34,342 bases of DNA, taken from a virus. Taxonomy: Duplodnaviria > Caudoviricetes. Both the position numbers and the translations under genes were made by a program. The number at the start of each line of letters is the position of its first letter. The stretch's first letter is position 1. Below, piece after piece: positions 2,617 to 26,459 of the stretch. The stretch spans positions 1 through 34,342 of the IMG/VR virus record IMGVR_UViG_3300005611_000108, one strand, 5' to 3'. Below the pieces are notes generated by a model. That model did not search any database, was not told the DNA's origin, and saw only the letters and a program-made list of their open reading frames with translations.

Positions 2617-4451
2617 CATCAAGATTCGTTTTACCACTAGCCGACGTTGGCGCGGGCTTAACTCCAAGCTCAGGCGCACAGTTATTCTTTTATGAAACTG
2701 GTACGACTACGCCTAAAGATACTTATTCTGATAGTGCAGGCACTACGCCTAATGCTAATCCTGTTGTGGCTAATAGCGTTGGTGTTTTCCCTGATATTTT
2801 TATAACTGGTACTTATAACGTCGTTCTAAAAAATAGCGATGGTGTTCAGCAGTGGGCGGCTGATCCTGTTAGTGAGTACGCCACGTTTGTAGCGGGGGGG
2901 TACGTCTCTAAAGCTGAACTAGCTGCGACTGATGGTGAGTTGCTTGTTGGGTCGTTTGGTTCGTTAGCGGATGCGGTGGCGGGAATCACAGCGGCTGACG
3001 CAGGCAAGCGGGTGTCATGGCTTGGTTACTACGCTGCATCGGATGGAGGGAGTGGTTGGGGTATTGTGAAAACTGGCGCACACACTGCTGATGGTGGGTC
3101 TATTTTAAGTGCTGGCGCTAGTTTATACATTGAGCAAAATCTGGAAGGCGCCAAGATAAATATAAAGAAATTCGGGGCGCGTTGTGATAACGCGACTGAT
3201 GATATAACAAAGTTAGTTGCTGCTGATGCTTATGCTGCATCTCTTGGTGGTAGCACATTAAGACTACCAGAAGGAACTTGTTTGATAAGCGCGGTTTTTA
3301 CATTAAGTGCTGGAAATGGGTTAGAAGGACTTGCTAGGGATTCGTGCATAATAAAACAAACCGATACATCGCTTGGCGGTGTTAAGTTAAGCGGGATAAA
3401 CAGAGTTAGCAATTTGAGAATTGAGGTTGACTCGGCAAACACCAACACGACCGCAATAGGGCTAGACGCATCAGGAACATCGGATAACATAGTAGAACAG
3501 GTAAGGGTTTTATATTTCGCTTACGGCGTTAGATCAACTGGACTGACGTGGCGACAAACTTATGATCATGTACGGATTGAAAACCCAACAAATACAGGCT
3601 TTCATTTTGATGATGCAAATCTGCATCTTGAGGTATATTTGAAACAGTGCTACGTCGTAAATAATAATGCGCTAGGTCTAACAAACAAAGTGACTTTATA
3701 TATAAATGGTAGTAAGGGAACCTATATAAATAACTTCGCATCTGATGGTGGCGTAGCCGTATCAACTAAAAATACAGGTGCTGTTATTATTAATTCAAAT
3801 GTCGTAATTGACGGTTCGCACTGGGAAGGGTACGAGGTTCCAGCAGGCGCGATAGCTGGATCGACGTTTGATAGTCTGATTCACGTTTCAGGATCATCGT
3901 TTGAAACAAGTGCACTGCATTGTCAAGTAGTTGACCCTACCACAGCTTCTACTGCTGCAATTATTGGATTACAAAGCAGCAGTAGGGTGGTTAGCAAAAA
4001 CATAGTATTAAACAGTACCACTATTTCCGCGTACAGCACTCAGCACATCGGCATAAGCAACACGTTTGGCGATAACATATTTGAAATGCTAGGTGGGGAT
4101 AGAAATCTAGTAATAAAAGAAGCAGGGACGGCAGCAGGGACGGCGAAAGCGGTAAGGTCTGGTATTGAAAGCAAAAGAAGCGGAGACTCTGGGTCATTTA
4201 CAATAGATGTAAATACAATATCAAGCATATTTTTTGCGGGCAGCACAGGCAGCTTAACAGGGTTTACAAATCCCATCTCTGACGGCCATCGAGTCCGAAT
4301 AGTGCATAGGGTTGTTGGTGTTACGACTGTTCATAGTTCAGCATTTAGACATCAGGGCGCTGCTAACTTTGTTGGCACTGGAAATGCTATGCAGGTTTTT
4401 GAATATAGCGCTGAAGGGGATTTCTGGTCGGAAGTTTCAAGGGTTTCATAA
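2613..4451 (+). CDS. Tailspike / receptor-binding protein with pectate-lyase-like beta-helix
   Basis: N-terminal particle-binding motif (GAQLFFYETGTTTPKDTYSD...NANPVVANSVG) and beta-helix start motif NIKKFGARCDNATDD followed by LRLPEGTCLI. Confidence 0.85.
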   Translation: MTSRFVLPLADVGAGLTPSSGAQLFFYETGTTTPKDTYSDSAGTTPNANPVVANSVGVFPDIFITGTYNVVLKNSDGVQQWAADPVSEYATFVAGGYVSKAELAATDGELLVGSFGSLADAVAGITAADAGKRVSWLGYYAASDGGSGWGIVKTGAHTADGGSILSAGASLYIEQNLEGAKINIKKFGARCDNATDDITKLVAADAYAASLGGSTLRLPEGTCLISAVFTLSAGNGLEGLARDSCIIKQTDTSLGGVKLSGINRVSNLRIEVDSANTNTTAIGLDASGTSDNIVEQVRVLYFAYGVRSTGLTWRQTYDHVRIENPTNTGFHFDDANLHLEVYLKQCYVVNNNALGLTNKVTLYINGSKGTYINNFASDGGVAVSTKNTGAVIINSNVVIDGSHWEGYEVPAGAIAGSTFDSLIHVSGSSFETSALHCQVVDPTTASTAAIIGLQSSSRVVSKNIVLNSTTISAYSTQHIGISNTFGDNIFEMLGGDRNLVIKEAGTAAGTAKAVRSGIESKRSGDSGSFTIDVNTISSIFFAGSTGSLTGFTNPISDGHRVRIVHRVVGVTTVHSSAFRHQGAANFVGTGNAMQVFEYSAEGDFWSEVSRVS

Positions 4452-4832: not shown

Positions 4833-5110
4833 TTGAAACGTGCATTACAGCAGCTATAGGCGCAACAGTCAGCATATTAGATGCTGGCGGATTGCCTTAT
4901 ATCAGACTAGCCAGAATGTGGTTTGTTGCCTTTTTTTTAGCTGTGTTTTTATCTGATGATGTTATAAATGCTATGCAGCATTTTTTTAGTTTCAAGGTTT
5001 CTGTTGGCGGAACTGTCTTTATGACAGCTCTGTTTGGCTCGGCAATTACCGAAAGGTTCTTATTTTTTATAAAATCGTTTAAACTTAGCACATTGGGTTA
5101 TAAGAAATGA
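4829..5110 (+). CDS. Putative holin (2-3 TM segments)
   Basis: 93 aa with hydrophobic segments and a basic C-terminus; overlaps the endolysin stop codon. Confidence 0.55.
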   Translation: MIETCITAAIGATVSILDAGGLPYIRLARMWFVAFFLAVFLSDDVINAMQHFFSFKVSVGGTVFMTALFGSAITERFLFFIKSFKLSTLGYKK

Positions 5111-5535
5111 TATTAGATACAGTACTAGACGCAATATTAACGGCTTTTGTGGTAGTAAGCTTAATGAGATTATGGCGAAAGATAAAAAGACCGTTAGTAT
5201 ATGTCGTTGAAGATAGTGAGTCTGATATCATGCTGTTGAAAATAAACGCTGCTTTTGAGCGTTATGATGTAAGATATTTTAGAAGTTTGGAATCAATAGG
5301 ATTTAGGCTTGCTATTAATCCGCCAAGCGCGGTGATTGTAGATTACAAGTTAGCAGGCAAAACGAATGGCGATCAATTATTTAGATTTTGTAGACGAAAT
5401 CATATACCAGTTTTAATGACTACGGCCTATGATGGTGAAATAATGGGAGTCGATGCTAAGTTTATAGCAAAGAAAAGCGGCGACAAATCATATTATTTAC
5501 AGATAGAAAACTTTTTAAACGAGGTGTCAGTATGA
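5107..5535 (+). CDS. Membrane-anchored single-domain response regulator (receiver/REC domain)
   Basis: N-terminal TM followed by [11 protein letters not shown] hallmarks: VYVVEDS (acidic pocket), VIVD79YKL (phosphoacceptor), NGDQL, PVLMTT106AY, FIAK122. Confidence 0.8.
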
Positions 5536-5920: not shown

Positions 5921-6029
5921 TTCTTATTGCGCTCTATATGAGCCAGTTAGAAACTATCTTGACGTGGATCAAGCTATCATTGATCAGATAAATGTCAATA
6001 ATGCTATTTATCTCGAACACTGCAAGTAA
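5841..6029 (+). CDS. Outer-membrane lipoprotein spanin (Rz1-like)
   Basis: Signal peptide with lipobox LSGC and additional Cys residues; overlaps the i-spanin. Confidence 0.75.
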   Translation: MLDVKHVTSSIAILIMLSGCKTVSTIDSYCALYEPVRNYLDVDQAIIDQINVNNAIYLEHCK

Positions 6030-6161: not shown

Positions 6162-6187
6162 GCCCACATTTCTAGTGGGCTTTTTTT
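6162..6187 (+). terminator. Rho-independent terminator ending the late/lysis operon
   Basis: GCCCAC-7nt-GTGGGC followed by T7, at the junction of convergent operons. Confidence 0.75.
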
Positions 6188-6411
6188 ATTCCTAAACAAA
6201 ACAATTGCGCTTTGTAATTAAAGCCCAGCTCAGGCGCGTAACCTGTGTTTTTATTGCGTCTTGTGAACGCTATTAACCCTGTAGAACAACATAACTTACA
6301 TCGGGATTGATAGCCTGTAATGGTTGTTTTATTTTTACTGAAATCTTCCCAAGGTAAAAACTTATTGCACTTTGAGCACTCACGCCCTTCATCTGTAATT
6401 AATGCTTTCAT
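6172..6411 (-). CDS. Zn-finger protein (CxxC...CxxC)
   Basis: RECSKC...SRCKLC. ATG at 6411 has a GGAG RBS and is preferred over the 6441 start. Confidence 0.6.
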   Translation of the reverse strand: MKALITDEGRECSKCNKFLPWEDFSKNKTTITGYQSRCKLCCSTGLIAFTRRNKNTGYAPELGFNYKAQLFCLGIKKAH

Positions 6412-6432: not shown

Positions 6433-6512
6433 GTATAACACTGAATATCCAGAATTATACGGAATCCATATAACACGGTAAAAAGCGGATTCCGTCTAAT
6501 AAAGTGTTATGC
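6433..6512 (+). repeat. attC-like site 1 (atypical)
   Basis: GTATAAC...GTTATGC. TAACACT/AGTGTTA outer stem; inner stem ATTATACGGAATCC/GGATTCCGTCTAAT pairs at 13 of 14. Confidence 0.55.
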
Positions 6513-6764
6513 GCGCACACTATCAAGCCAGTCTTTTAAAATGGTTTTTAGTAATACGTCCCATTGATCCAGTTGCGTGAAATCTTTCTTGCCTTCAATT
6601 ACGTCCTCGATTAACGCAACTGGAATAACGTGAACGCTTTCACCACAATTTACGGTTAAGTGCGGTTTATTGTCGCTTATATGTCTTATATTATTTTTAA
6701 TCAGATCGCATCGGCATCTATGTCCGTACTCCCCACAATCACTGCATAAAGGTCTACTGCTCAT
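6507..6764 (-). CDS. Cassette A hypothetical protein (N-terminal CxxC-H-C knuckle)
   Basis: ATG 6764 with AGGGGG RBS; stop TAA lies within the core site GTTATGC. Confidence 0.7.
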   Translation of the reverse strand: MSSRPLCSDCGEYGHRCRCDLIKNNIRHISDNKPHLTVNCGESVHVIPVALIEDVIEGKKDFTQLDQWDVLLKTILKDWLDSVRA

Positions 6765-6783
6765 AAATCCCCCTAATAAATTC

Positions 6784-6846
6784 GTATAACAACCCATTCT
6801 TTCGGACAGCGTAAAGAGACACGCTGTCGCAAAGTTTGGGTTATGT
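6784..6846 (+). repeat. attC-like site 2 (63 bp)
   Basis: GTATAAC...GACAGCGT-loop-ACGCTGTC...GTTATGT; L boxes are degenerate. Confidence 0.7.
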
Positions 6847-7059
6847 GTGGTCAATATTTCTTAATAATCTATCAATAAGTAATTCGTCACCAACACTTAC
6901 ATTAAGTGGCCAGTTACTGTTTGATCGAGCTAAAACGCTAATAGCTCTTTCTAGCTCTTGTATTTTATTCTTTAGATCATGGTTTTCGTTAGCCAAGCCT
7001 AAATTAAATTCTTCAAGCTTATTAATTCTTTGGGTGTATTTAGTTTCAAAAAGCTCCAC
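6841..7059 (-). CDS. Cassette B hypothetical coiled-coil protein
   Basis: GTG start after AAGGTGAG; stop lies within the core GTTATGT. Confidence 0.65.
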   Translation of the reverse strand: MELFETKYTQRINKLEEFNLGLANENHDLKNKIQELERAISVLARSNSNWPLNVSVGDELLIDRLLRNIDHT

Positions 7060-7093
7060 ATCTCACCTTTTTCGTGGCATCAAGTAAATGGTC

Positions 7094-7158
7094 ACATAAC
7101 AAAAACATCAAACGGATTTCGCAAAGACCCGCTCAACGCGTTTATGTCCTGGTTAGGC
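7094..7158 (+). repeat. attC site 3 (65 bp, canonical)
   Basis: R'' ACATAAC, 5 nt, L'' CAT(C)AAAC, L' GTTTATG, 5 nt, R' GTTAGGC; carries the extra C typical of attC L''. Confidence 0.88.
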
Positions 7159-7461
7159 GTCTTTAGCGGCCTTTAGTAGCTGCTCTTTCGCTTCAAGATA
7201 TTCACTCTCAGAACATTTATATTCTTCAGTTAAATAACATGCATTTCGCTCAGGGCTGCATCTTTCAATTTCCAACTCAAATTCTTTCTTGTCCCTTAAA
7301 TAGCTTGTAGTGACTTTTATTGCTGTGCTTTTACTTTCCTCTATTTTCCCAAAAATAACAGCGTCTAACTCGTCAAGCATAAGGTCATGCTTGTAGTAAA
7401 AGGGGAAATCAATATTAACTTTTACTTTTTGTTTTATGGTTTTTGTAACTTCTATTTCCAT
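7153..7461 (-). CDS. Cassette C hypothetical protein
   Basis: 102 aa with AGAAGGA RBS; flanked by the perfectly complementary GTTAGGC and GCCTAAC. Confidence 0.75.
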   Translation of the reverse strand: MEIEVTKTIKQKVKVNIDFPFYYKHDLMLDELDAVIFGKIEESKSTAIKVTTSYLRDKKEFELEIERCSPERNACYLTEEYKCSESEYLEAKEQLLKAAKDA

Positions 7462-7492
7462 CTTATTTTATCCTTCTAAAGTTAATTAGTGC

Positions 7493-7551
7493 GCCTAACA
7501 AGGCGCTCAAACGGACGCGATAAAGCCGCGCCCTTTAGCTTGTGGCTATGT
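7493..7551 (+). repeat. attC site 4 (59 bp; core altered GTT->GCT)
   Basis: GCCTAAC AAGGC GCT(C)AAAC GGACGCG..CGCGCC CTTTAGC TTGTG GCTATGT; classic 59-base-element layout. Confidence 0.88.
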
Positions 7552-7815
7552 TCTTGTATTCCACTTGTCTTTCATGCGATCTCGCAACTCTTCAAACGTT
7601 TCGCCACCATCTAAAACACCATTTGCAAAATCAAAATTGCCGCAATTAGGGCATGTTATTTGGTGGCATCCGTCCGGGCCGCAACAACACCATCGTATGT
7701 TTTCATCACCGCAAAATGGGCAAGGCTTAAACATAACAATGCGCTCTTGGTCGGACTTGCTATTATCGTGCTCGCTCTTATTTAAGTGCGTGTTACTATC
7801 TCTTAACCATGTCAT
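7546..7815 (-). CDS. Cassette D Lar-like (restriction alleviation family) Zn-ribbon protein
   Basis: KPCPFCG...ITCPNCG...KWNTR pattern. Start 7815 has a GGAGA RBS; alternative start at 7734. Confidence 0.65.
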   Translation of the reverse strand: MTWLRDSNTHLNKSEHDNSKSDQERIVMFKPCPFCGDENIRWCCCGPDGCHQITCPNCGNFDFANGVLDGGETFEELRDRMKDKWNTRT

Positions 7816-7860
7816 ACTTTATATCTCCGTTCTCGCAAGCCGCAAAGCTTGGGGTTATGT
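7731..7860 (+). repeat. attC site 5 (130 bp, long type)
   Basis: ACATAAC AATGC GCT(C)TTG..CGGACTTGC...GCAAGCCG CAAAGC TTGGG GTTATGT. Confidence 0.8.
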
Positions 7861-8055
7861 GTCTAAAACAAAATCGCCGCGCCAATCGCATTCAACGTCA
7901 GTAACTCCATGAAAAAACAGAAGCGGTTCAACGTAAGTGTCGAAATATCGCTCATTTACTGCTTGTGACCCACACGAACAGTGATGAAATATCGGAATAT
8001 CTAGCGGGTCGCAAGGTGTTATCAAGTTGTCGTTTTCGTTCATTTTAAATTTCAT
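7855..8055 (-). CDS. Cassette E hypothetical protein
   Basis: AGAAGGTGA RBS; flanked by GTTATGT and ACATAAC; stop lies in the core. Confidence 0.65.
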   Translation of the reverse strand: MKFKMNENDNLITPCDPLDIPIFHHCSCGSQAVNERYFDTYVEPLLFFHGVTDVECDWRGDFVLDT

Positions 8056-8079
8056 AAATCACCTTCTAAATTAATAATC

Positions 8080-8135
8080 ACATAACTCTCACATCAACGG
8101 ACTGCTGAAGCAGCCGCAAAATAGGAAGGTTATGT
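8080..8135 (+). repeat. attC-like site 6 (56 bp, L' degenerate)
   Basis: ACATAAC TCTCA CATCAA CGGACTGC TGAA GCAGCCG ... GTTATGT. Confidence 0.7.
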
Positions 8136-8369
8136 GTCTAAAGCATCGCTGGCTATTTTTACGGCACCACAATCACCATCAGCGCCCCATTTGATTTCTT
8201 CAATCTCAAGCAATGCTCGTTCTAATTTTCTTATCCTGTTTTGTAAATTTTCAGAACAATTGTGAACGCAATGCTTAGCAAACAGTTTCGCGCTTGTACT
8301 GGTTACAAAACGCTTATCTAAGCTATCTGGGAACTCCATAAAAACTTCAAATTCTTCATCTATATTCAT
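8130..8369 (-). CDS. Cassette F hypothetical protein
   Basis: 79 aa with AGGT RBS; stop lies in the core GTTATGT. Confidence 0.65.
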   Translation of the reverse strand: MNIDEEFEVFMEFPDSLDKRFVTSTSAKLFAKHCVHNCSENLQNRIRKLERALLEIEEIKWGADGDCGAVKIASDALDT

Positions 8370-8411
8370 AAATTACCTGCTTCTAACTAGCCTTTACGAC
8401 ACAATATCTAC

Positions 8412-8594
8412 TTAAATACTAAAACTACGCTTCGGCTTATCTACGCCACTAACGCCGTTCGCTATATTTTTAATCTTCCCGCCATTCTTAAAAAACTCTT
8501 TTGTCTGTTTGGCTATCAGGCTAGATTCTTCTTTCTTGATTCGCATGATTCGCCCGTGGCTCATTGCTTCACCTGGCTTTAGTACTGTTGTCAT
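8412..8594 (-). CDS. SutA-like RNA-polymerase-binding domain protein
   Basis: Motif EFFKNGGKIKNI..GVSG resembles the SutA core EEFLSRGGKVQEI (recalled from memory). Confidence 0.55.
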   Translation of the reverse strand: MTTVLKPGEAMSHGRIMRIKKEESSLIAKQTKEFFKNGGKIKNIANGVSGVDKPKRSFSI

Positions 8595-8971: not shown

Positions 8972-9955
8972 TTATAATCTAACTGGCATAACTATAAAAG
9001 AATCATTAATCAAGCAAGCTTTACCGCCTCCCATTTTAATATCCAGATCGTTGCAATTTGCAGCGTTTATAGCGTCAATTAAGAAATGAGTCATAAAACC
9101 TATTTCAATGTCACCAGTTGAAACTACATCACATTCAGTTTCAGCGCCTTCATTTTTCAAGATCGCCGTATCTTTAGTAATATTAAATCTAACCATATCG
9201 CCGCCTATTTGAGCTGTTTTAATTGCGCTCAATAGATCACCTGAGTTGGCAGTTAAATTAATCTCAAAATCTTTAGGTATAATTCTTTGCCAATCTGGAA
9301 ATTTAGCATCAACCAACCCTGTCGAAAAAATAGCGTTAGCGGCTTTAATAATTAACTGATTAGACGACACAGAAACAACGCCATCAATCTCTGGAAATTG
9401 GCGTATAGTTTCTGCAGGTATGATCACATCAGGGCCGTCATATTTGGATTCAATATAGGCCATTCTCATTCCGTCAGTTGCAACTGCATAGCCTTTCGTT
9501 AGATGAACGCCATTTAACATGATCCGCACATCTTTGACCGGCAAAGCGTGAGATATAACAGAAATGGCGTGAACTAAATCAGCACTATCAATGCCGCATG
9601 ATTCTGATTTCTCTAAATCAGGTATAGGAAACGCATCATAATCCATACTTTCGAGCTTGATGCTTGTTCTACCCTGCTTAATGTTTTTATCTGTTATCTC
9701 AATTTCGCCAGATTTCATATTAGTCACGGCACGTGAAAGCTTTACAGCCTCTAACGTACATTGACCTGGCTCACCTTGAGCCTCGAATATCTCTTGATAT
9801 GTGCGCACACTGTCACTAGCAGTTAGCGTGCAGCATTTACCATCAAAGCTTAGCGCCACATGGTTATAAATTGGCATCATGGCCCGACCATTTGCAATTT
9901 TAGCCGCTTTCTTTATTACACTTAAAAATGTTGATTTGTCTGTGATTATTTTCAT
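8972..9955 (-). CDS. dnaN: DNA polymerase III beta sliding clamp homolog
   Basis: Motifs LTASD, DAFP, RIMLNGV, VATDGMRMA, KFPDWQRIIP and C-terminal IVMPVRL. Confidence 0.9.
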   Translation of the reverse strand: MKIITDKSTFLSVIKKAAKIANGRAMMPIYNHVALSFDGKCCTLTASDSVRTYQEIFEAQGEPGQCTLEAVKLSRAVTNMKSGEIEITDKNIKQGRTSIKLESMDYDAFPIPDLEKSESCGIDSADLVHAISVISHALPVKDVRIMLNGVHLTKGYAVATDGMRMAYIESKYDGPDVIIPAETIRQFPEIDGVVSVSSNQLIIKAANAIFSTGLVDAKFPDWQRIIPKDFEINLTANSGDLLSAIKTAQIGGDMVRFNITKDTAILKNEGAETECDVVSTGDIEIGFMTHFLIDAINAANCNDLDIKMGGGKACLINDSFIVMPVRL

Positions 9956-10917
9956 TAGAATAACTCGTATTGTTTGATAGATGCTGATTCAAGATTGCGC
10001 ACAGCTAGATTAAAATAAGACTCTTTAAGCTCCGCCCCTATAAATTTACGGCCCATTTTTAAAGACATATATCCTTCTGACCCAATACCCATAAAAGGTG
10101 ACCATACTACATCATCTGGATTACTCCATAGTTGTATACATCTTTGAATAACATCAAGCTGTAGAGGGCATATATGGCGCTCGTCGTCACTGTCTCGACC
10201 TTCTCTAAAGTTCAATGTATCGGATTGGTTTACGTCCATCCATACTGGGCTTGCGTATCGCTGCCACACATCGACGCTAGTATTTTGACTTGATGATTTA
10301 ACCTTCCAGCACGTTCGACCGTCATCCCATTCATGGCGCTCAAAATCAGGAGCAGGGCTATCACCTACATAATATTTAAACTCACCTGCGATATGATCGA
10401 CATTAGCGCCAGGCTTGCGCATCATTATCATTGTGTCAGGTATGCCCATTCTACTCATTGAGCTGTCTTTTTTGATGGTCTTATGGAGCAGTCCAAGCGC
10501 CTTAGTTCTTTGCATTGCAATAACTGGATCTTTCCAAATAACAACTTCGGAATGAAAAATAAAACCAGCGTCTTGATATGCTTTTATTAATTCACCTCTA
10601 AAATCTCTAATACCGATAAAGCCGTCATTTTGTTTTGATGTAGGTAGATTCATACAGTGAATAGCAACAATACGGCCTGATTTCATTACCCTGAACTGCT
10701 CTTTAATTAAAAATAAATATTGCTGCCAGAACTCGTTTGAGTCTTTACTGTTGCCCATATCTCTATCGCTGTTTGAGTACGTGTATAGCGACTCAAAAGG
10801 CGGGCTAAAAACAGAAAACCCAACTGATTCGTCAGGCAATCCGCGAGCCACCTCAACAGTGTCTGCATGATAAATTGACATATCGTCATTTATTATTTGA
10901 TTGATTACTTTAGCCAT
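9955..10917 (-). CDS. Amino (N4-C/N6-A) DNA methyltransferase, beta class
   Basis: Catalytic FSPPF near the N-terminus; HICPL and SAM-binding SPFMGIGS near the C-terminus. Confidence 0.9.
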   Translation of the reverse strand: MAKVINQIINDDMSIYHADTVEVARGLPDESVGFSVFSPPFESLYTYSNSDRDMGNSKDSNEFWQQYLFLIKEQFRVMKSGRIVAIHCMNLPTSKQNDGFIGIRDFRGELIKAYQDAGFIFHSEVVIWKDPVIAMQRTKALGLLHKTIKKDSSMSRMGIPDTMIMMRKPGANVDHIAGEFKYYVGDSPAPDFERHEWDDGRTCWKVKSSSQNTSVDVWQRYASPVWMDVNQSDTLNFREGRDSDDERHICPLQLDVIQRCIQLWSNPDDVVWSPFMGIGSEGYMSLKMGRKFIGAELKESYFNLAVRNLESASIKQYELF

Positions 10918-12266
10918 TTCGCTATCTCCATTATTATAGTTGGGTTATATTCTGTCTTTGTAGTTGATGCGCTGAATATCTCTTTATCCATTGCCGTTTT
11001 CATGTGATCAATCATCATTGCACCTAAATGATAATTTTGTTTATCTTTTCTTTGTATGTTCTCAATTACAGAACCTTCAGTATCTGCCGAAATTACATGG
11101 ACATGAACATCGTTCTTTTGCCCGAACCTCCAGCACCTTCGAATAGCCTGGTAGTAAGATTCCCAGCTGTCCGATAAACCAACAAATATCATTTGATTGC
11201 AGTTCTGCCAATTCATGCCGAATCCAGCTATTTTAGGTTTGCTTACAAGCACGCGAACATCGCCAGATGAAAACCCTATCAATGATGATGATTTATGTTC
11301 TGGTTTATCGCTGCCTTTTACCTCTACTGCATCATTTATGAGTTTAGTTAATTTTTCTGACTCTTCATTTAAATTACACCAAACCAGTATTTGACCTTGC
11401 ATAGAATTGGCAATGTCAGCGGCTTGTTGAACCCGTTCGTCTACCGAATCTTTGCGCGCTTTGTTCCTGTCTTGCAGCCCTTGAGCAGGATCAACTATTA
11501 GAGAGTCGACTGGATCAGTTTCAATAACATGAGAATGATAAACGATAGGCTTTAATTTATGTCTTGAACCATCAAAACCTAAATCAGATGGGTTTCTTAT
11601 TACTACAGCCCATGAAGCCATCCACTCGAAAAACCTTGACTGGCCATGACCTTTTAAACGCCATTTTGAAGTATCAGAACCATCGTGAATAAAAAACATA
11701 GCGAGCATTTCAATCTGACTCATAATACCTAGAAATTCTGACTGCGTTCCTATCTCCATAAAATCGTTAGGGCTAGGCGTGGCTGTGCAACTTAATCGAT
11801 AAGGAATTGATAATGCGAACTCTGTTATCTCTTTTCTTCGAGTTCCGTTCATGCCTTTTAATATGCTTGATTCGTCTATTACGATGCCTGAAAAATACGA
11901 GCTATCATATTTATGTAACTGCTCATAGTTTGTTATCTGAATGCCGTCAATCACCGTATCAGGATCGGCTTTAAATATAGGGATGCCGTACTTTTCACCC
12001 TCTAATATTGTCTGACTCGATACAGCGAGAGGCGCTAAAATCAATACTGGTTTTTTAGTGTGCAAATATACTTGATGCGCCCATTCCAACTGCATTATGG
12101 TTTTACCTAGACCAGTGTCAGCAAAGATAGCGGCCTTTCCTCTTTTTAATGCCCATTTAACAATCGGTATTTGATAGTCAAAAAGGTTTTTATTTAAGTC
12201 ATTGCAAACAAAACCAGATTGATTCTGTCTAAATGACTTATTAGATAAAAACTCCTCATAATTCAT
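10905..12266 (-). CDS. SNF2-like SF2 helicase
   Basis: DTGLGKT, IDESS, TATP, GFGMN, QAIRRCWRFGQ. Confidence 0.88.
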   Translation of the reverse strand: MNYEEFLSNKSFRQNQSGFVCNDLNKNLFDYQIPIVKWALKRGKAAIFADTGLGKTIMQLEWAHQVYLHTKKPVLILAPLAVSSQTILEGEKYGIPIFKADPDTVIDGIQITNYEQLHKYDSSYFSGIVIDESSILKGMNGTRRKEITEFALSIPYRLSCTATPSPNDFMEIGTQSEFLGIMSQIEMLAMFFIHDGSDTSKWRLKGHGQSRFFEWMASWAVVIRNPSDLGFDGSRHKLKPIVYHSHVIETDPVDSLIVDPAQGLQDRNKARKDSVDERVQQAADIANSMQGQILVWCNLNEESEKLTKLINDAVEVKGSDKPEHKSSSLIGFSSGDVRVLVSKPKIAGFGMNWQNCNQMIFVGLSDSWESYYQAIRRCWRFGQKNDVHVHVISADTEGSVIENIQRKDKQNYHLGAMMIDHMKTAMDKEIFSASTTKTEYNPTIIMEIAKWLK

Positions 12267-13184: not shown

Positions 13185-14771
13185 TCAAAAAATCCTGTTT
13201 GTTATTTGATAAAATTTACCTTCTTTTTTGTATTTTATAGTTTTTGGCGGTAAAGCTTTTGTCATAGCTTCAGCTATTTCCTCTAGTGACATTTCTTGGT
13301 TAATGATGGCGCATGATCTAGTTGCCATTTCTGCCAACTGGTTTAATGCTTTGTTACCCGCAAAGCCGCTATGCGTTACGCACAAATATTCTGTTATAGC
13401 GGGATCAGAAAGACCGCCGTAATACCTAACAGCTAGCATTTCTTTTCCGCTTGACTTGCTAACATGCTTTAACCATCGCCATTCATTAACGTTCATCTCT
13501 TCCGGCGCTTTGCCCATAATATCTTGGGTGTGAAGCCTTGGCTGGGTTTTCTCTTTTTCTTCAACAGGAAAAACATTCCCGCATTCGGTACACGTTTTGC
13601 ATGATGCGTGAACTATCTCAAAGCAACTAGGGCAAGCTTTAACAGGTGCTTGACCTTCGCCAGGTCCTGCTTTAGTTGGCGTAATAACATTAGTGATAGG
13701 ACCATGCTGTTTTACACAGCCAGCAAAATCTAATACTAGGCAATGATCAGTATGCGACTTAGGGCGCAAACCTCTGCCGGCCATCTGCACATATAGGGCT
13801 GGTGACATGGTAGGCCTTAACATGGCAATAAGATCAATATCAGGGTAATCAAATCCAGTGGTTAAAATATTGGCATTTGTTAATGCGCGTAATTCGCCAG
13901 ATTTAAACCTTTTTAAAATATCTTCACGTTGCTTTTTAGTGTTCTTTCCAGTGATACATTCAGACTTTATACCTCGCCTAATCAATTCATCTTTTATATG
14001 TTCAGCATGTTCAACACCAGCACAAAAAAACAGCCATGCTTTTCTATGTTCAGCACGTTCAATTACTTCATTAACAATAGCCTGGTTTGAATCTGTATTA
14101 TCTACAGCGGCTTGAAGCTCCTTTTCTATATACTCACCACCTCTTTTGTGGACTCCTTCAGTGCTCAGCTTAGCGCCTGTTAGCTTGCTTCTAAGTGGAG
14201 CTAGAAAGCCTTTATAAATCAGCTCTTCAATCGTGACAGGGTTTAAAATGTCGTCAAAAATAGCCGGTTTATCTGTGATTAATCCATGCCCCAATCTGAA
14301 TGGTGTAGCCGTTAAACCTATAACCCTAAGATTTGGATTAATAGCTTTTAAATCTTCTATAAACTGACGATATCCGCCCTCGTTTTTATGATTAACCAAG
14401 TGGCATTCATCTATGATTATTAAATCAATATGGCCTACTTCTTGCGCCTTATTTCTGATCGATTGAATGCCAGCAAACGTGATTGGCTCATCTAAAACTT
14501 TCTGACCAACACTTGCAGAATAGATACCCATTGGCGCACCTTTCCAGTGCTGGCGCATCTTTTCAGCGTTTTGCTCTATTAGCTCTTTAACGTGAGTCAA
14601 CATTAAAACCCTTGTTTCAGGCCAGCTTTGCAAAGCATCTTTACAAAGCGCTGCTACAATGTGGCTCTTGCCCGCTCCGGTCGGAAGCTCTAGACAGGGA
14701 TTGCCTTGGTTGCCATCTTCAAACCACTTATAAAGCATTTCTATGGTTCTTGTCTGATAATCTCTAAGCAT
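13185..14771 (-). CDS. SF2 DEAD/H helicase (RadD/YejH-like) with Zn finger
   Basis: LRDYQ, PTGAGKS, DECH, TATP, QMAGRGLR, CPSC..CTEC. Confidence 0.92.
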   Translation of the reverse strand: MLRDYQTRTIEMLYKWFEDGNQGNPCLELPTGAGKSHIVAALCKDALQSWPETRVLMLTHVKELIEQNAEKMRQHWKGAPMGIYSASVGQKVLDEPITFAGIQSIRNKAQEVGHIDLIIIDECHLVNHKNEGGYRQFIEDLKAINPNLRVIGLTATPFRLGHGLITDKPAIFDDILNPVTIEELIYKGFLAPLRSKLTGAKLSTEGVHKRGGEYIEKELQAAVDNTDSNQAIVNEVIERAEHRKAWLFFCAGVEHAEHIKDELIRRGIKSECITGKNTKKQREDILKRFKSGELRALTNANILTTGFDYPDIDLIAMLRPTMSPALYVQMAGRGLRPKSHTDHCLVLDFAGCVKQHGPITNVITPTKAGPGEGQAPVKACPSCFEIVHASCKTCTECGNVFPVEEKEKTQPRLHTQDIMGKAPEEMNVNEWRWLKHVSKSSGKEMLAVRYYGGLSDPAITEYLCVTHSGFAGNKALNQLAEMATRSCAIINQEMSLEEIAEAMTKALPPKTIKYKKEGKFYQITNRIF

Positions 14772-15789
14772 CTTTGATTATCCTTCCGTCAAATTCTTTT
14801 CTGATATAATTAACGTATTTATCGCCTTTAGCGCACTCGCTAGGGTTCGCTAATATCTCAGAGCTTCTATATCCTGATTCGCCGTTAAGAACTTCTTTTC
14901 CGTCAATGATGTATATTATTTCGCTCTCATTTTCAGCGTCTTTAGTTTTCCATGGCGTTAAATCTGGATGAATAACGTGCAAATCACACCCGTCATTCTG
15001 AAAATCAGTAGGGATAGAATCTTGATGTAACTCACAAAACCAAGTTGAATCTTCTTTAGCTGTTGAATGCGCGCAAGTTCTACAATTGACCTCTTTTGTC
15101 AGGTTTGTTTTATGGCAAAATTCGTGAGCATCACAAAACCGACATTCAAACCAAGTCAGATCTACTGAAAGCGGGGCGGGGAGTCTATTTTCTAAAGCAA
15201 TTCGCTTGCCTCGCTCTATGTATTTCTCAGCTAAAGCGTGATCAAGTCTAACGCGCTCTGTGTAGATAGAGTCGTCGTTTTTACAGATCGCAAAATACAA
15301 AGCGCGGTCTATTTTTAGACCGAACATATAAACTTGCATTTGCACATAGTGAATAAATTTAGACTTCTGAACGCAATTCTTAACAACATCATCAAAGCTT
15401 TTCTTTGAGTGAGTCTTAGCCTCGAAAACATGGCGCTTCGTTGGAGCTTCTGGAACTCCGCTCTCTATAATTCCATCGATGGAGCCGCTAAAGTGACTTC
15501 CAAAATTAACACGCGCTTGACTTCCGCCTGTCGAATGTATATCTATGCCAATAGCACGCAAATCTTGAGCTATCCAGTTTTCTTCATGGTGCCCACGCCT
15601 AAATATTCTTAAAATACGGCCCTTAAATTCTGGAATGACAGCCCAGCGAAAAGAAAGCCATAGCCATCTATCGCAAGGATGGCCGATTTGTGAAACTCCA
15701 AGATGCGGTCTTGGCTTTTCCTTTCTTGATTCGTGCGCTTTATCAATCAAACCTGCTATGCTGTGTTGTGGTTCTGGTATTAGTGACAT
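14764..15789 (-). CDS. PD-(D/E)XK exonuclease (Cas4/YqaJ-like)
   Basis: SQIGHPCDR, GSIDG, EAKT, QMQVYM, CRFC...C cluster. Confidence 0.82.
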   Translation of the reverse strand: MSLIPEPQHSIAGLIDKAHESRKEKPRPHLGVSQIGHPCDRWLWLSFRWAVIPEFKGRILRIFRRGHHEENWIAQDLRAIGIDIHSTGGSQARVNFGSHFSGSIDGIIESGVPEAPTKRHVFEAKTHSKKSFDDVVKNCVQKSKFIHYVQMQVYMFGLKIDRALYFAICKNDDSIYTERVRLDHALAEKYIERGKRIALENRLPAPLSVDLTWFECRFCDAHEFCHKTNLTKEVNCRTCAHSTAKEDSTWFCELHQDSIPTDFQNDGCDLHVIHPDLTPWKTKDAENESEIIYIIDGKEVLNGESGYRSSEILANPSECAKGDKYVNYIRKEFDGRIIKDA

Positions 15790-16338: not shown

Positions 16339-16728
16339 TTATTCCCCTGTTTTTTCAATTGAAAATGATGTTCTTGCTGGTTTTGTTGTAATTGCATCTA
16401 AAAGAGGTGCAATCATTTCTTTATCTGCACTATTCCAAGCCTTGGCATTGATAGCAGGTGACCATCTAAAAAGATCACCTAAATGCTCAGATAGTCCATG
16501 CTCGTGCGCTATTTCTTGCAGTTTGTCGCTGTCAATTTTGCGCGTCATTCTTGCTGTTGTTTTAACTTTGAATTGATCTATGTCAAAAGTTTTTGAACCT
16601 TCGACATTAGAATCAACTCCCAAAGCATCAATTAAAGCGTCTTCTATATAGCGCCTGTTTTCAGATGCAGCGCGCTCTATTTCTTTTTCATTGATCCACG
16701 ACTCAATGAGATTATTTATCTGGCTCAT
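16339..16728 (-). CDS. Conserved phage recombination-module protein
   Basis: 129 aa between the Sak4-like ATPase and SSB; coupled to both. Confidence 0.6.
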   Translation of the reverse strand: MSQINNLIESWINEKEIERAASENRRYIEDALIDALGVDSNVEGSKTFDIDQFKVKTTARMTRKIDSDKLQEIAHEHGLSEHLGDLFRWSPAINAKAWNSADKEMIAPLLDAITTKPARTSFSIEKTGE

Positions 16729-17399
16729 TTAGCGCCCCCTATTTTTGCAATGATCGCGCCTAAATCTGGTGACTCCCACGGATCAAGCTTTCCTGATCTG
16801 TCTTTAGCCTGCCATAATCCATCGCCTTCACACATTAGCGCCCTTTGAACAATTCCTTCAGCGTCCTTTTCCATTCTTAGCGCCAGCACTTCATCAACTA
16901 AATATGGTATTTGTTGGCCTAATTTAGCGCCGGGCATTGAAGGCGAATATAAAAGCTTGCCTGTTTCGTCTTGCTGCTTTTCGCACTTAGCGGAAAAGTA
17001 AATATTCTTACCTTGGATATCTCTAAATGCGCGCATTAGCTCAAGAACTTGAGTAGCCATTTCACCATAAGCGGCTCGACCGTCTTTATTAACGCTCTTT
17101 TCATGCGCTAAAATCACCTCGCCTATTTCGCTTATCGAATCAATAGCAATGCTTTCAAAGTCGTCACACTCCCCGCTTACGATATACTGATAAGCTTCTT
17201 TTAGATCGCTGTATGATGAAATATTGATATAAGGTATATCTTCACCCTCTAATGACAATAGACCACCCTCGGCGCTTATAATAATTGGATTAGGCAAGGT
17301 TTTAATTAGCGATGTTTTGCCTGATCCAGCCATACCATATACAACAATTTTCACACCATTTGCTTTAGCATCTGACGTGCTTCTTAACTTTATAGCCAT
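16725..17399 (-). CDS. Sak4-like AAA ATPase/recombinase
   Basis: YGMAGSGKT, SAEGG, IDSISE, AKDRSG. Confidence 0.85.
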   Translation of the reverse strand: MAIKLRSTSDAKANGVKIVVYGMAGSGKTSLIKTLPNPIIISAEGGLLSLEGEDIPYINISSYSDLKEAYQYIVSGECDDFESIAIDSISEIGEVILAHEKSVNKDGRAAYGEMATQVLELMRAFRDIQGKNIYFSAKCEKQQDETGKLLYSPSMPGAKLGQQIPYLVDEVLALRMEKDAEGIVQRALMCEGDGLWQAKDRSGKLDPWESPDLGAIIAKIGGAK

Positions 17400-21843: not shown

Positions 21844-22212
21844 ATGCGCTTTCTTATTTTTATACCTCTCCTATTCTTGTTTTTGCTTGCCCCTATTTTG
21901 GCGTTTGCCACTGATATTGTATTAACATGGGACACACCGACGCATAGAGAAGACGGCTCTCAGATAGAGCAGATTGACCACTTTAATTTATACACGTCTA
22001 TCAACAACACAGCGCAACCCATTACGCAACTAGATGGCGCTGCTACAACTTATCAACTCGACAATGCAGAGCCCGGAAACTACACTTTCAATATTAGCAC
22101 TGTTGAGTTTGGGCAAGAGGGTGCGCAATCAGAGCCTGTTAGCATCAACATAAACGAGAAGATCATATCTAGAATTGGCAAGGTTAAGATAACTATTGAG
22201 GCCGTTGAATAA
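21844..22212 (+). CDS. Exported fibronectin type III domain protein
   Basis: Signal peptide ending AFA; VLTWDTP..REDGS, FNLY, PGNYTFNISTV. Confidence 0.7.
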   Translation: MRFLIFIPLLFLFLLAPILAFATDIVLTWDTPTHREDGSQIEQIDHFNLYTSINNTAQPITQLDGAATTYQLDNAEPGNYTFNISTVEFGQEGAQSEPVSININEKIISRIGKVKITIEAVE

Positions 22213-25200
22213 TGGCTTACGTTGTAAATACAAAAACCACTGCTGGCACTGGCGGAAGCGTCACTGTAAACCTACCCGCACATCTCGATGATGATGTGGT
22301 GTTTATATTTGTTAGTGGACTTAACGGCACTGGAATAACTGCGCCTGCCGGTTGGGAATCTATCGGCACACTTAGTAACTCAGGAAGCGCACGAAATGCG
22401 TGTTTCTATCAGCGCGCAGTTACTGCTCCATTATCCGCACCTACAGTAACATCTTCTAACGGTTCTTTTAAGCTAGGCGCCGTATCTATTGTTGTAAGGG
22501 GTGCTGACGTATCTACCACAACATCTGCTTTTGATGCCTTTGCAGAAGGCACAACAGGAGGAGCTTTATCTGTAACTAGCTCAGCCTTAACACTTGCGGA
22601 TTCTAATGAATTAATCTTATTAGTAACAACGGGCGAACGATCAGCCGAAGACCCTTTCTTTGCCGCTGGTGACTGCATAGATTTAGAATATATTAACGAC
22701 ACTGTCAGCGCGCATTTTATACTTGGAGCCGGTTATACATATAGCCAGACATCACCAAGCCCTCAATACACCTCATATACAGCAGATGATGCAAGCAGCG
22801 GTATGGGTATATTTGCTATTGGCGTGATTGATAATGGAAATGGTCACGTAGCTGGATACTCAAAGCAGGGAACAGCAGCGGATTTAATATACTTCAATAT
22901 AGCTAGCCATGCTGACGCGATAACTGGTCAAGTAGATGTAACAGATGTATCGTTCACGCCACAAATCAGTAGTGTTACAAGCGCAGAGAGCAGTGTCACA
23001 CAAACAACTATAAACGACAGCTTCACTGGTGAGGGTGCTGTACATAAACTATTCCCAAACCCTATTGGCGTTGCTTTGCAGTCTAACAGCTCGGAGACAG
23101 GCAATCTGCTAATGAGAGGAATAACGCTTACAAGCACAATAGACTTGTCAAACTCAAGACTGTCTATGTCAGCAGCGGCAGACTCTATAAACGTCGCATC
23201 TCTGGATGATCTTGGCAGACTGATAGGCTTTGGCGACGCAACTAATGCTAGTATGTTCTTGTATGACGGTAAGGATGCGGCAGTAAAATCTACGTTAGGA
23301 ATTCAAACATACGTTATAGACACAGCAGCTACAGGCTACGAAATAGACACCTTTGGTGGTGGTTCACTAAATTGGGCGGCTGTTAAGCATATAATTCATG
23401 GCGTAATGCCATCAAGTTATAGCGGTTATTATTTCTACACCGGGCCATTATATAAATTATCAGCAATGACTATGTTGGGAGGTAGTAGTACCTTACCATG
23501 CACATTTGATGATTGCGCAAAAGCCGCTATAGGTGGAGCATTAAATACAGTAACAAATCAGTCAGGACAAACAAAAGGGCAGTTTTATTCGCTTCAAGAT
23601 ATAACTATTGGTGATGGAACTAATAGCATCTATTGGAAGTCTCAGTATCAAGCCATCGAGTTTCCTCAAGCTTACAATTACTCACGAGGCATAGTTCAGG
23701 CGCAAACTGACGCATCATCAACCACGTTAAAAATATTAGCGTCTGCTAGCTGCACAATGGATTTTGATGTAACCACTATTGACATGGGCAACTATCATAA
23801 TTTTACTGTGGATGCCTCTTCTAGTTCTTCTGCTACATACAGTTTTGAGAGTTGTATTATTCTGAACGCTACACCAACCTTACAATCTGTTGGATTAGAT
23901 AAATATAGTGGGATGTCTTTAATAGGCTGTAAAGAATTAACAATCAACGGCTTTGACAATAAGGCAACTAAAACACTTGGAAGTGTAACGGTCTCAAATT
24001 GTGTAGATAGTTATGCAGTCACTGTGACGAGCGAGGATGAGTTCGGAGCACTCACTGACTGTATATTTAAAAATAATGCCACAGCCATATTAATAACAGG
24101 CAATCAAACCGGCTCTTGGTCAGACCCAAATTTAACCGTTAGTGGCAACACTTACGATATTGAGTACTCAGGAACAACAGACTTTAGCATTCAGTCTGCA
24201 AACGTTTTGACGGTTAATAATTCAAGCACTGGTACACTAACAACAGTTACCCCTACTTTTGACTTGACTGTAAATTCTAGCCAAACAGGCAGTACTATTA
24301 ATGTGTTTACTACTTCGACTCAAACTGTATTAGACACTGAAGCTTCAGCTAGTCAGCTCGTTTACACTCACTCAAGCGAAACGGTTGACATAACTGTACT
24401 AAAAGACGGCTATATTCCTTACAGACAGACAGGTTTAGCCTTGTCTGGTACGGTCACGATTGACGTGCAGCTAGTTAAATCAAGAGAATATAATTCTAGC
24501 CATGGATTAACTTATACGACAGATGCAAGCTGGTCACGTTCTTTGAACCAACTAACTGTTCCTACATGGGGAGTTACTGGCCAGAATGTCTTCAGCTTGA
24601 TTCTTGAGTCATTTAGAACTCAGTCAACACTTGCCAATACAGCCTTTAATTTAGAGATGGATGGTGCTAGTTCACTGTTTTTAACTAATGGAGCTGAAGG
24701 CGCTAGTGATGCAAGTATAGAAAATTTAATCGAGTGTGGTACTGCCTATTTAGATAGCTCAGGTGTAACTACTGCTTCATGGGTAGCAGTTAAGTCGGTA
24801 GGCAATGCAAGCGGTTTTACTGGCGAATATCAGCAAGTAGACGGAAGTGGAACAACAGATGCCAGAGCAACTGGCATATTTAACGAAGCCATAAAAATGT
24901 ATGGCGATGTTAGTCACGGTAATTTTGATTATAGGGGGCACTTGGTACTTAAATACCAAGTAAATACGTATAGAGAAGCTAGAGTAGATGTCATAGATAG
25001 TTATGGCCTGTCTACACTGTCACCAACTTTATATATTGTTGCGCTTGAGCCTGTAGCAATAGATATTACGGCGGGTGATCCAGCAATAAGTATTACTATA
25101 GTTGATCATACCGGCGCACCTTTAGTTGTTGGCGGTAAGTCTTTTGATTTTGAAATACAAGACAATGGCGCAAATAGTGCAGAAGATATTCTAAGAGAGT

Positions 25201-26459
25201 TAAATTATAACTTATCACTAGATGCGACTTATCAAGGGCGCGACCCGTTCAACTGGCCCGAATTGGTTTTGCAGTCTGGCACAACATACGAAACAATTAG
25301 AGGTGTTGTCGAGGGCTTATCTGGTGAGCATGGCGTATATGTTAGCCGTAGCGCCGCAGATCACCCTGACTTTGTAAGGCATCAATCAAACGACGGAACA
25401 TACTACGTTAAGCCAGTGTTAGCGAATGGCTCTATATCTGGCATCACAGCCGGTTCAAGATTGCGTATCTACAATGAGACAACAGCAACAGAAACAGTAA
25501 ACGCAATCAACGCGACCACTAGCTATTCTATAAACTATACAGAAGGCACAACATACACAGCCGGTGATGTAATATCTATTTATTTGACATACCAGAGCGG
25601 AACAAGTGCAAAGCTTGGATTTAGTACTTCAGCTATAGCGTCAAGCATAGGCTGGTCAGCTATCGCTAGTCAACTAGATGATGATGTATATAACACAAAC
25701 GCTATAGACGGATCAACGCTGACAAAATTCACAGCGGATTATGTAAACGATGAGATTGATTTAACAACGGCGACAAACTTTACCGGCCCAGAAGTCTATG
25801 CGTTTTATGTTTTTGCAATCACTAGCGCTGATGGCATTCGCAATTCATTTGGCGGATTTACCGCGCTAGATTCTGGAAATTATCGGAATAATGTTAGTGT
25901 TGTTAGCATGAAGCTGGATAACACAACAACTACTGAAGTGTGGCAAACGGACACGTCAAGAATATTTAGAACAGACAGCGCAAGACCTGTCAGAAATCCA
26001 ACAAGCGGCGGGGGCGGGATCGACGTAAACTGGCAAAACGTAGTTTATGTTGTAACAGCAGGTAGCGGGTTAACGGCAGGTCAAGCGGCAGAACTAACAG
26101 CAGCGGCACAAGCTTCGACAGTCAACACTAAAATAGGCACGCCAGCGGTAACGGTTAGTGATGATATTGCTGCAATATCGGCAGGTGGTGACGCTACGCA
26201 AGCAAAACAAGATATTATCATCGCTGATTTGGCGGTAGTAGATGCTATTGTGGATTCAATTCTAGAAGATACAAGCACAACAATACCCGCACAAATAGCA
26301 GGGTTAATTGCACCTGATAATGCAAGCATAACAGCCATAAAAGCAAAAACAGACTCTTTGACATTCACTAAAGCGAATGAATTAGACTCGAACATACAAA
26401 GCGTAAATGACGTAACGGTTCAAGGCACTGGCTCAACCGGCGATGAGTGGGGGCCGTAG
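22212..26459 (+). CDS. Large beta-rich multidomain virion fibre/adhesin-like protein (1415 aa)
   Basis: S/T/G-rich with no signal peptide; C-terminal coiled segment ...AIKAKTDSLTFT...EWGP. Confidence 0.6.
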   Translation: MAYVVNTKTTAGTGGSVTVNLPAHLDDDVVFIFVSGLNGTGITAPAGWESIGTLSNSGSARNACFYQRAVTAPLSAPTVTSSNGSFKLGAVSIVVRGADVSTTTSAFDAFAEGTTGGALSVTSSALTLADSNELILLVTTGERSAEDPFFAAGDCIDLEYINDTVSAHFILGAGYTYSQTSPSPQYTSYTADDASSGMGIFAIGVIDNGNGHVAGYSKQGTAADLIYFNIASHADAITGQVDVTDVSFTPQISSVTSAESSVTQTTINDSFTGEGAVHKLFPNPIGVALQSNSSETGNLLMRGITLTSTIDLSNSRLSMSAAADSINVASLDDLGRLIGFGDATNASMFLYDGKDAAVKSTLGIQTYVIDTAATGYEIDTFGGGSLNWAAVKHIIHGVMPSSYSGYYFYTGPLYKLSAMTMLGGSSTLPCTFDDCAKAAIGGALNTVTNQSGQTKGQFYSLQDITIGDGTNSIYWKSQYQAIEFPQAYNYSRGIVQAQTDASSTTLKILASASCTMDFDVTTIDMGNYHNFTVDASSSSSATYSFESCIILNATPTLQSVGLDKYSGMSLIGCKELTINGFDNKATKTLGSVTVSNCVDSYAVTVTSEDEFGALTDCIFKNNATAILITGNQTGSWSDPNLTVSGNTYDIEYSGTTDFSIQSANVLTVNNSSTGTLTTVTPTFDLTVNSSQTGSTINVFTTSTQTVLDTEASASQLVYTHSSETVDITVLKDGYIPYRQTGLALSGTVTIDVQLVKSREYNSSHGLTYTTDASWSRSLNQLTVPTWGVTGQNVFSLILESFRTQSTLANTAFNLEMDGASSLFLTNGAEGASDASIENLIECGTAYLDSSGVTTASWVAVKSVGNASGFTGEYQQVDGSGTTDARATGIFNEAIKMYGDVSHGNFDYRGHLVLKYQVNTYREARVDVIDSYGLSTLSPTLYIVALEPVAIDITAGDPAISITIVDHTGAPLVVGGKSFDFEIQDNGANSAEDILRELNYNLSLDATYQGRDPFNWPELVLQSGTTYETIRGVVEGLSGEHGVYVSRSAADHPDFVRHQSNDGTYYVKPVLANGSISGITAGSRLRIYNETTATETVNAINATTSYSINYTEGTTYTAGDVISIYLTYQSGTSAKLGFSTSAIASSIGWSAIASQLDDDVYNTNAIDGSTLTKFTADYVNDEIDLTTATNFTGPEVYAFYVFAITSADGIRNSFGGFTALDSGNYRNNVSVVSMKLDNTTTTEVWQTDTSRIFRTDSARPVRNPTSGGGGIDVNWQNVVYVVTAGSGLTAGQAAELTAAAQASTVNTKIGTPAVTVSDDIAAISAGGDATQAKQDIIIADLAVVDAIVDSILEDTSTTIPAQIAGLIAPDNASITAIKAKTDSLTFTKANELDSNIQSVNDVTVQGTGSTGDEWGP

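Follow-up and report, generated by a model that had tools for sequence, protein, structure and literature searches.

The DNA analysed here, referred to as the window, is the whole of a virus record of 34,342 bases with an estimated completeness of 92% (CheckV). P22-like portal, scaffold, coat, and tail-accessory genes are encoded in it, and the nearest portal proteins are those of Thalassomonas phage BA3 and Vibrio phage VvAW1 (both ~35%). A lysis module occupies the plus strand up to position 6029, and a replication and recombination operon runs leftward from 17399. At the distal end of this operon, where it meets the lysis genes, lies an array of six short open reading frames (ORFs) and six sites. 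A sequence-only reading had described these as six palindromic sites in one-to-one alternation with six ORFs, forming an integron-type cassette array; all were located at the places it gave. The features discussed below are as follows.

6172..6411, minus strand: fixed flank gene left of attI, zinc-finger or nuclease-like, related to PHROG Lar-like and endonuclease families
6455..6512, plus strand: attI-type primary site (S1), with repeats at 6460-6473 and 6486-6499, L box 6494-6500, and R box 6506-6512
6507..6764, minus strand: ORF A, 85 aa, Cys-rich N-terminus, phrog_30574 (cassette A, 6507-6840)
6784..6846, plus (top) strand: S2, attC of cassette A; weak model score of 9.0 bits, fold -15.6 kcal/mol
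6841..7059, minus strand: ORF B, 72 aa, GTG start (cassette B, 6841-7152)
7094..7158, plus strand: S3, attC of cassette B, folds weakly; 12.2 bits
7153..7461, minus strand: ORF C, 102 aa (cassette C, 7153-7545)
7493..7551, plus strand: S4, attC of cassette C, with G/CT at R'; 24.9 bits
7546..7815, minus strand: ORF D, 89 aa, Lar-like zinc-finger body (cassette D, 7546-7854)
7731..7860, plus strand: S5, attC of cassette D, whose long loop holds the start of ORF D; 23.6 bits
7855..8055, minus strand: ORF E, 66 aa (cassette E, 7855-8129)
8080..8135, plus strand: S6, attC-like site of cassette E, L boxes unpaired; missed by the model
8130..8369, minus strand: ORF F, 79 aa, last unit, terminating at an R''-like core at 8381-8387
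14764-15789: Cas4-domain exonuclease gene
16725-17399: Sak4-like annealing protein gene

Elsewhere in the window, positions 8412-8594 encode a protein of 60 aa whose SutA RNA-polymerase-binding domain (PF20661, over cut-off) makes it a possible transcription modulator of the phage; it is retained at 81-86% in the relatives G001 and L001. The block at 8972-12266 encodes a beta clamp, a DNA methylase, and a second helicase; the clamp is missing from G001, where the block has no BLAST match. A response-regulator-like ORF within the lysis module (5107-5535; PF00072, E 0.002, under cut-off) is conserved in relatives, and a 1415-aa ORF ahead of the terminase (22212-26459) gave no match to Pfam or PHROG.

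The sites were scored with a bottom-strand covariance model trained on 20 bacterial attC sites only (59-95 bases). Training loci carried an integrase above the TIGR02249 cut-off, which was present in 43 of 61 genomes of the Oleiphilaceae family. In the 31 loci examined, the top strand was set by the position of intI rather than by the hairpin. On the minus strand of the window, the model, a check proposed along with the sequence-only reading, matched S4 (E 9e-5) and S5 (E 2e-4) strongly and S3 and S2 weakly, and gave no match at S1 or S6. Two further places in the window scored 14.3 and 9.2 bits, so the model by itself does not place S2 and S3 over background; in other phages, sites closely related to S2 scored 16-25 bits, and bottom-strand matches were obtained in 10 phage loci. 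S4 and S5, two of the five attC sites, reached at least 20 bits in this model of our own, and as a pair above 20 bits with no intI they correspond to a CALIN under the threshold given in the available passages of PMC9892861 (at least two attC within 3 kb, no intI). No Rfam family matched.

The R''-L''-loop-L'-R' arrangement, with extra-helical bases in the L'' arm, is clear in S3, S4, and S5 and plausible in S2. GTT is present at the R' crossover of S2, S3, S5, and S6, and S4 has GCT. The two ends of a single site, described earlier as often not complementary, match at 6, 6, 4, 7, and 8 of 8 bases in S2 to S6, respectively. S3 folds at -4.7 in the array versus -8.6 as a predicted circle junction, and folding energies are similar for both strands of S2, S5, and S6. 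S6 folds at -9.2 to -9.4 with its L region open and is likely a decayed or chimeric site. Because S4 is without the conserved GTT in the array and the L boxes of S6 are unpaired, part of the array may be frozen.

Site 1 is of a different kind. Its L and R boxes are separated by a 5-bp spacer, with the G/TT crossover at 6506/6507, and it matches the sites upstream of intI in three bacterial loci (L054, L085, and L086) at 42, 40, and 42 of 55 positions without gaps, where the other 28 of the 31 intI loci gave 24-31 matches and shuffled sequences 24-30. The matching sequence occupies the same position upstream of intI in each of the three, and an Oleiphilaceae genome from a GTDB scan carries a homologue of site 1 between intI and the first cassette. 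On this sequence resemblance, site 1 is attI-like and not attC, and the attC-type identity holds for S2 to S6 only. Heads of the attI type occur in seven phage or phage-like contig lineages, and both repeats are retained in unrelated phages. One contig, L029, has two such heads (reverse strand, at 2965 and 5181), each leading its own cassette run. The fixed flank gene at 6172..6411 occupies the place that intI has in bacterial integrons; it is not a cassette and is 79% identical in a relative assembled twice (G001 and L015).

The integrases of L054, L085, and L086 are 57-70% identical to one another and 38-47% identical to 14 of the 15 others compared; the fifteenth, from L072, belongs to the same clade (group identity 57-74%), but its upstream DNA ends early. 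Their relatives are integron integrases of 455-456 aa, two of them named from Oleiphilus. The attI class is uncommon, as a strict pattern was found in 1 of 401 genomes of the order, one already known. A search of GTDB with the attI pattern returned 20 matches, about the number expected by chance, with arrays at L042 and L044 only, and the right arm of the phage attC had no match in the sample of 401 genomes. In L042 (Oleiphilaceae; 2960-4020, reverse strand), a CRISPR array that ends in repeated degenerate units abuts the attI-type core heading the cassette array, and the intI is found on a different contig. Another gene-boundary motif consists of CGACA with, in most copies, a minus-strand stop codon 10 bases further on, and is located between small early genes adjoining arrays and before three attI-type sites (window 8397-8414; nine copies in L044, three in L032, two in L029, also in L018 and L033). 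It looks like an attC right arm without a left arm, and the attI regions of L060 and L065 contain CGACA as well.

The relation of the ORFs to the cores follows a regular scheme. Read on the minus strand, the stop codon lies in the right-hand core in 6 of 6 array ORFs, compared to 4 of 40 other genes in the window (Fisher p=2e-5), and consists of TAA+C in five and TAG+C in one. This confirms the earlier observation that every stop lies in a core; the stops sit in R' rather than R'' because the ORFs are inverted relative to the polarity of the attC sites. As had also been noted, the cores flanking ORFs A to E are complementary, at 7, 8, 8, 7, and 8 of 8 bases (5 of 8 for F), as expected if each of the units A to E entered as a circle. 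The alternation of sites and ORFs holds by position, with two departures: no hairpin or attC lies behind the core of ORF F (8381-8387), and the start codon, ribosome site, and first 28 codons of ORF D are all contained within S5.

All six ORFs lie on the attC bottom strand and face attI, opposite to classical cassettes, a feature that the sequence-only reading missed, as it did the attI character of site 1. Since the covariance model matches S2 to S5 on the minus strand, this is the bottom strand; the ORFs are encoded there and are therefore reversed. At 34 phage sites (model matches in 10 phage loci scoring 16 bits or more, with weaker matches and the duplicates of L026 dropped), the ORF was on the bottom strand at 31, on the top strand at 2, and unassigned at 1, compared to 2, 16, and 2, respectively, at the 20 bacterial sites (p=3e-9); this ratio describes the present pool only, since patterns taken from sites of the window itself were used to find the comparison loci, which are thus not an unbiased sample. 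The ORF starts within the attC at 11 of the 34 phage sites, and several long sites include both the ribosome site and the start codon. Two other accounts of the orientation were considered and rejected. Canonical polarity, with the attC top strand on the minus strand, would separate ORF D from its start and is also at odds with the joint movement of ORF A with the site on its 5' side. Inversion via wrong-way insertion by top-strand recombination would flip the attC too, and the attC polarity relative to attI is normal.

The suggestion of phage-like cargo was upheld by ORF A (phrog_30574), by ORF D, and by a cassette gene of L015 that belongs to phrog_322, a family present in many isolated phages. 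ORF D matches phrog_599 (E 2e-5) and PF14354 (E 8e-5, under the curated cut-off). Seventeen homologues of ORF A share a 60-aa core and have many differing N-termini, one of them like an attC-borne leader; against the ESM Atlas, the best score of ORF A (0.83) was at chance level. A Neptuniibacter MAG contains a homologue of cassette A. ORF B has a partial homologue within the array of L032. ORF C has only three homologues and no PHROG or Pfam family, and a scan of viral contigs for it gave a single weak match, L087, which has no attC match. The leader of ORF E is common, up to the ATG, to two unrelated ORFs in L025/L026. A defense search with PADLOC gave nothing convincing, and a promoter scan for Pc was at chance level (8 found versus 10 expected).

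Relatives of the phage provided evidence for gain and loss of cassettes with the break at G/TT, as had been anticipated. G001 and L015, two assemblies of one phage, are 79% identical to the window over 2 kb of left flank, up to the GTTA at 6509, beyond which they carry other cassettes in at least eight units. In a different phage, L032, the attI is 94% identical, and both the left flank and the first cassette differ; the first cassettes behind the same attI thus differ among the window, L015, and L032. Cassette A, with its leader and attC, sits core to core in the middle of the array of an unrelated 49-kb phage (L089, phage G068), which shows that the ORF moves together with the attC located 5' of it. 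Together, these cases show cassettes that move as units bounded by G/TT. Another contig, L014, matches the window at 100% identity for 3519 bases and breaks off precisely at GTTA 6509, and the bacterial contig L086 likewise ends at the GTTA of its attI; both endings fit an assembly branch without proving one. Of 46 shared segments, 34 end on the right at R' against a background of 13%, a proportion that is in part a product of construction, since attC sites make up many of the segments. No match to the array was obtained by BLASTN among 50,697 isolated phages, and the clamp-gene relatives L001-L003 end before the array.

Sharing of sites without sharing of genes was more common. Copies of S5 that are 94-97% identical occur in L032 and twice in L015, joined to other ORF bodies, and overall, differing ORF bodies are attached at R'' in four families of near-identical attC (88-97%); some leaders are identical exactly up to the ATG, after which the bodies differ. 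Such pairings outnumber whole-cassette matches, which comprise cassette A and a partial match between L024 and L089. Bottom-strand recombination by IntI does not explain the same attC with different gene bodies. Top-strand recombination would produce it, at a frequency that the available text of PMC5027507 puts 1000 to 10000 times lower; the Sak4-like protein and de novo cassette formation are alternatives. In the long attC shared by these loci, a one-base difference in the L'' arm (window 7744-7753 versus L015 6040 and 7809 and L032 6551) alters the frame that joins the leader peptide to the gene body.

Part of this pattern could arise if the sites had been captured once from a host integron and now served as short homologies at which annealing and exonuclease proteins of the phage swap genes. 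Both a Sak4-like protein and a Cas4-domain exonuclease are encoded, S6 looks chimeric, S5 has its loop but not its right arm in common with L015, and the fusion of one attC to different ORFs would be accommodated. We nevertheless consider exchange by homology improbable as the main process, as breaks occur at a 4-base core between sequences without other homology, the bracketing cores are still complementary for each cassette, an attI with both repeats is maintained in unrelated phages, and the extra-helical bases keep IntI polarity. Homology-based swapping may operate alongside IntI.

With regard to the enzyme, the earlier statement that no tyrosine recombinase is present held: PF00589 was found neither in the window nor in G001, and an IntI profile searched against six frames of both yielded nothing (best E 0.49). 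G001 covers the part missing from the window, which contains head-closure and ejection genes, in keeping with the expectation that tail genes were absent. Among nine other array-bearing virus records, six are without PF00589, two of them 99% complete, and the remaining three encode a tyrosine integrase. These three speak for a phage-encoded recombinase that acts in trans from a coinfecting phage or prophage, yet by length (350-380 aa) and position they are ordinary phage integrases, and site 1 matches the attI beside a true IntI (402 bits on TIGR02249); we regard this alternative as quite unlikely. That the hairpins are only RNA elements of the early transcript (processing sites, terminators, or translation leaders) with no DNA recombinase involved is the least credible explanation, for although the ribosome sites and start codons inside 11 of 34 sites indicate that the sites do act on the transcript, Rfam gave no match, the sites match bacterial attC and attI, and gene content switches at the cores.

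Overall, we favor with good confidence the interpretation, drawn from sequence comparison, that an attI and five attC-type sites with six genes facing attI form an array whose units are likely inserted, removed, and reordered by a host IntI during infection. By its sequence, an attI with L and R boxes heads the array; there is no intI beside it and neither a Pc nor ORFs collinear with the attC top strand. The array is therefore a CALIN with attI rather than a complete integron, and likely represents an integron split in two, with the platform site and cassettes on the phage and the enzyme supplied by the host. The integron-type reading is supported to this extent.

Each unit runs from G/TT, across the reversed ORF with its leader, to the attC, and the hairpin accordingly stands in front of its gene. 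Under the host-IntI interpretation, the enzyme is presumably a long IntI (~455 aa) from the clade whose attI is similar to site 1 and which occurs in Oleiphilus-like Gammaproteobacteria. This IntI would cleave the minus (bottom) strand in its folded form, with new circles entering at 6506/6507, which would make A the newest unit and E and F the oldest and most decayed. The genes would be read from the leftward early transcript of the phage and not from an integron Pc. A second process would give one attC-leader pair new gene bodies, joined either at R'' or at the ATG. A broader proposal, that unrelated phages of integron-bearing marine Gammaproteobacteria maintain their own cassette pool, built from reversed phage genes, through host IntI and a copy of the host attI, with phage and host pools mutually silent and attC-leader segments re-paired with new gene bodies, is offered as tentative; if it were true, the arrays would document, in readable form, the making of new integron cassettes.

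Clusters of attC in phages have been described by Qi et al. (2023), who, in the passages available, reported 17 CALINs among 10,705 phage genomes, recombination of 5 of 6 phage attC sites by IntI1, and attI only in phages or prophages also carrying intI (PMC9892861). The window shares with those examples an attC cluster between small ORFs in a phage without intI, and differs in having an attI without intI, in the reversal of all ORFs, and in a cassette common to an unrelated phage. We applied the covariance model to published phages: TJE1 was canonical at 3 of 3 sites, the annotated ORFs of ctTUS972 lay on the bottom strand, and no clear attC cluster was found in Shewanella phage 3/49, Vibrio phage H188, or P12002L. 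The PH101 array (NC_029094 75900-78000, L105) was mixed, with flipped annotated ORFs bearing a repeated leader and attC as well as a repeated forward leader after two sites, and the PH101 site that IntI1 recombined (PMC9892861) precedes a flipped ORF. The PH101 and TJE1 arrays are called typical in orientation there, and the passages found do not discuss flipped ORFs (PMC9892861). Phage attC clusters are thus already known, as far as these passages extend, and the flipped layout exists in published examples. What is new is an attI that names the likely enzyme and the joining of near-identical attC to different gene bodies; the former points to a testable enzyme, and the latter bears on how cassettes arise. 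No account of phage-borne attI without intI, or of flipped phage cassettes, was found in the literature searched, mostly in non-subscription journals.

Chromosomal integrons of Oleiphilaceae with a long IntI (L054, L085, and L086) have the same attI sequence and layout, the same attC structure, and the same polarity of attC relative to attI. In contrast to them, the phage has no intI, its ORFs face attI where the bacterial ORFs read away from it, and its cargo consists of phage genes. The cargo of the bacterial array L042 is presumably made up of toxin-antitoxin-like pairs.

Repeated hairpins that bound swappable early genes also occur in T4-type phages as PeSL stem-loops, which are promoter-bearing repeats thought to shuffle by homology. 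Unlike PeSLs, the sites of the window carry attC and attI signatures. Classical cassettes, as described in the accessible parts of PMC5027507 and PMC5371416, have the same R''/L''/L'/R' hairpin with extra-helical bases, a 57-141 bp size range, and the G/TT crossover, and the selectivity of recombination for the bottom strand keeps their ORFs reading away from the promoter and attI. In the phage, the attC polarity is normal, whereas the ORF within the unit is reversed and may start in the hairpin loop. Many integron cassettes are anti-phage defenses, according to the part of bioRxiv 2024.07.02.601686 that was available. Speculatively, a host-type cassette inserted into the phage array would lie antisense to the early transcript and be silent, which would shield the phage from host defense cassettes. 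Integrons are familiar as tools of bacteria; a phage that holds a cognate attI along with flipped cassettes of its own would put this machine to phage use.
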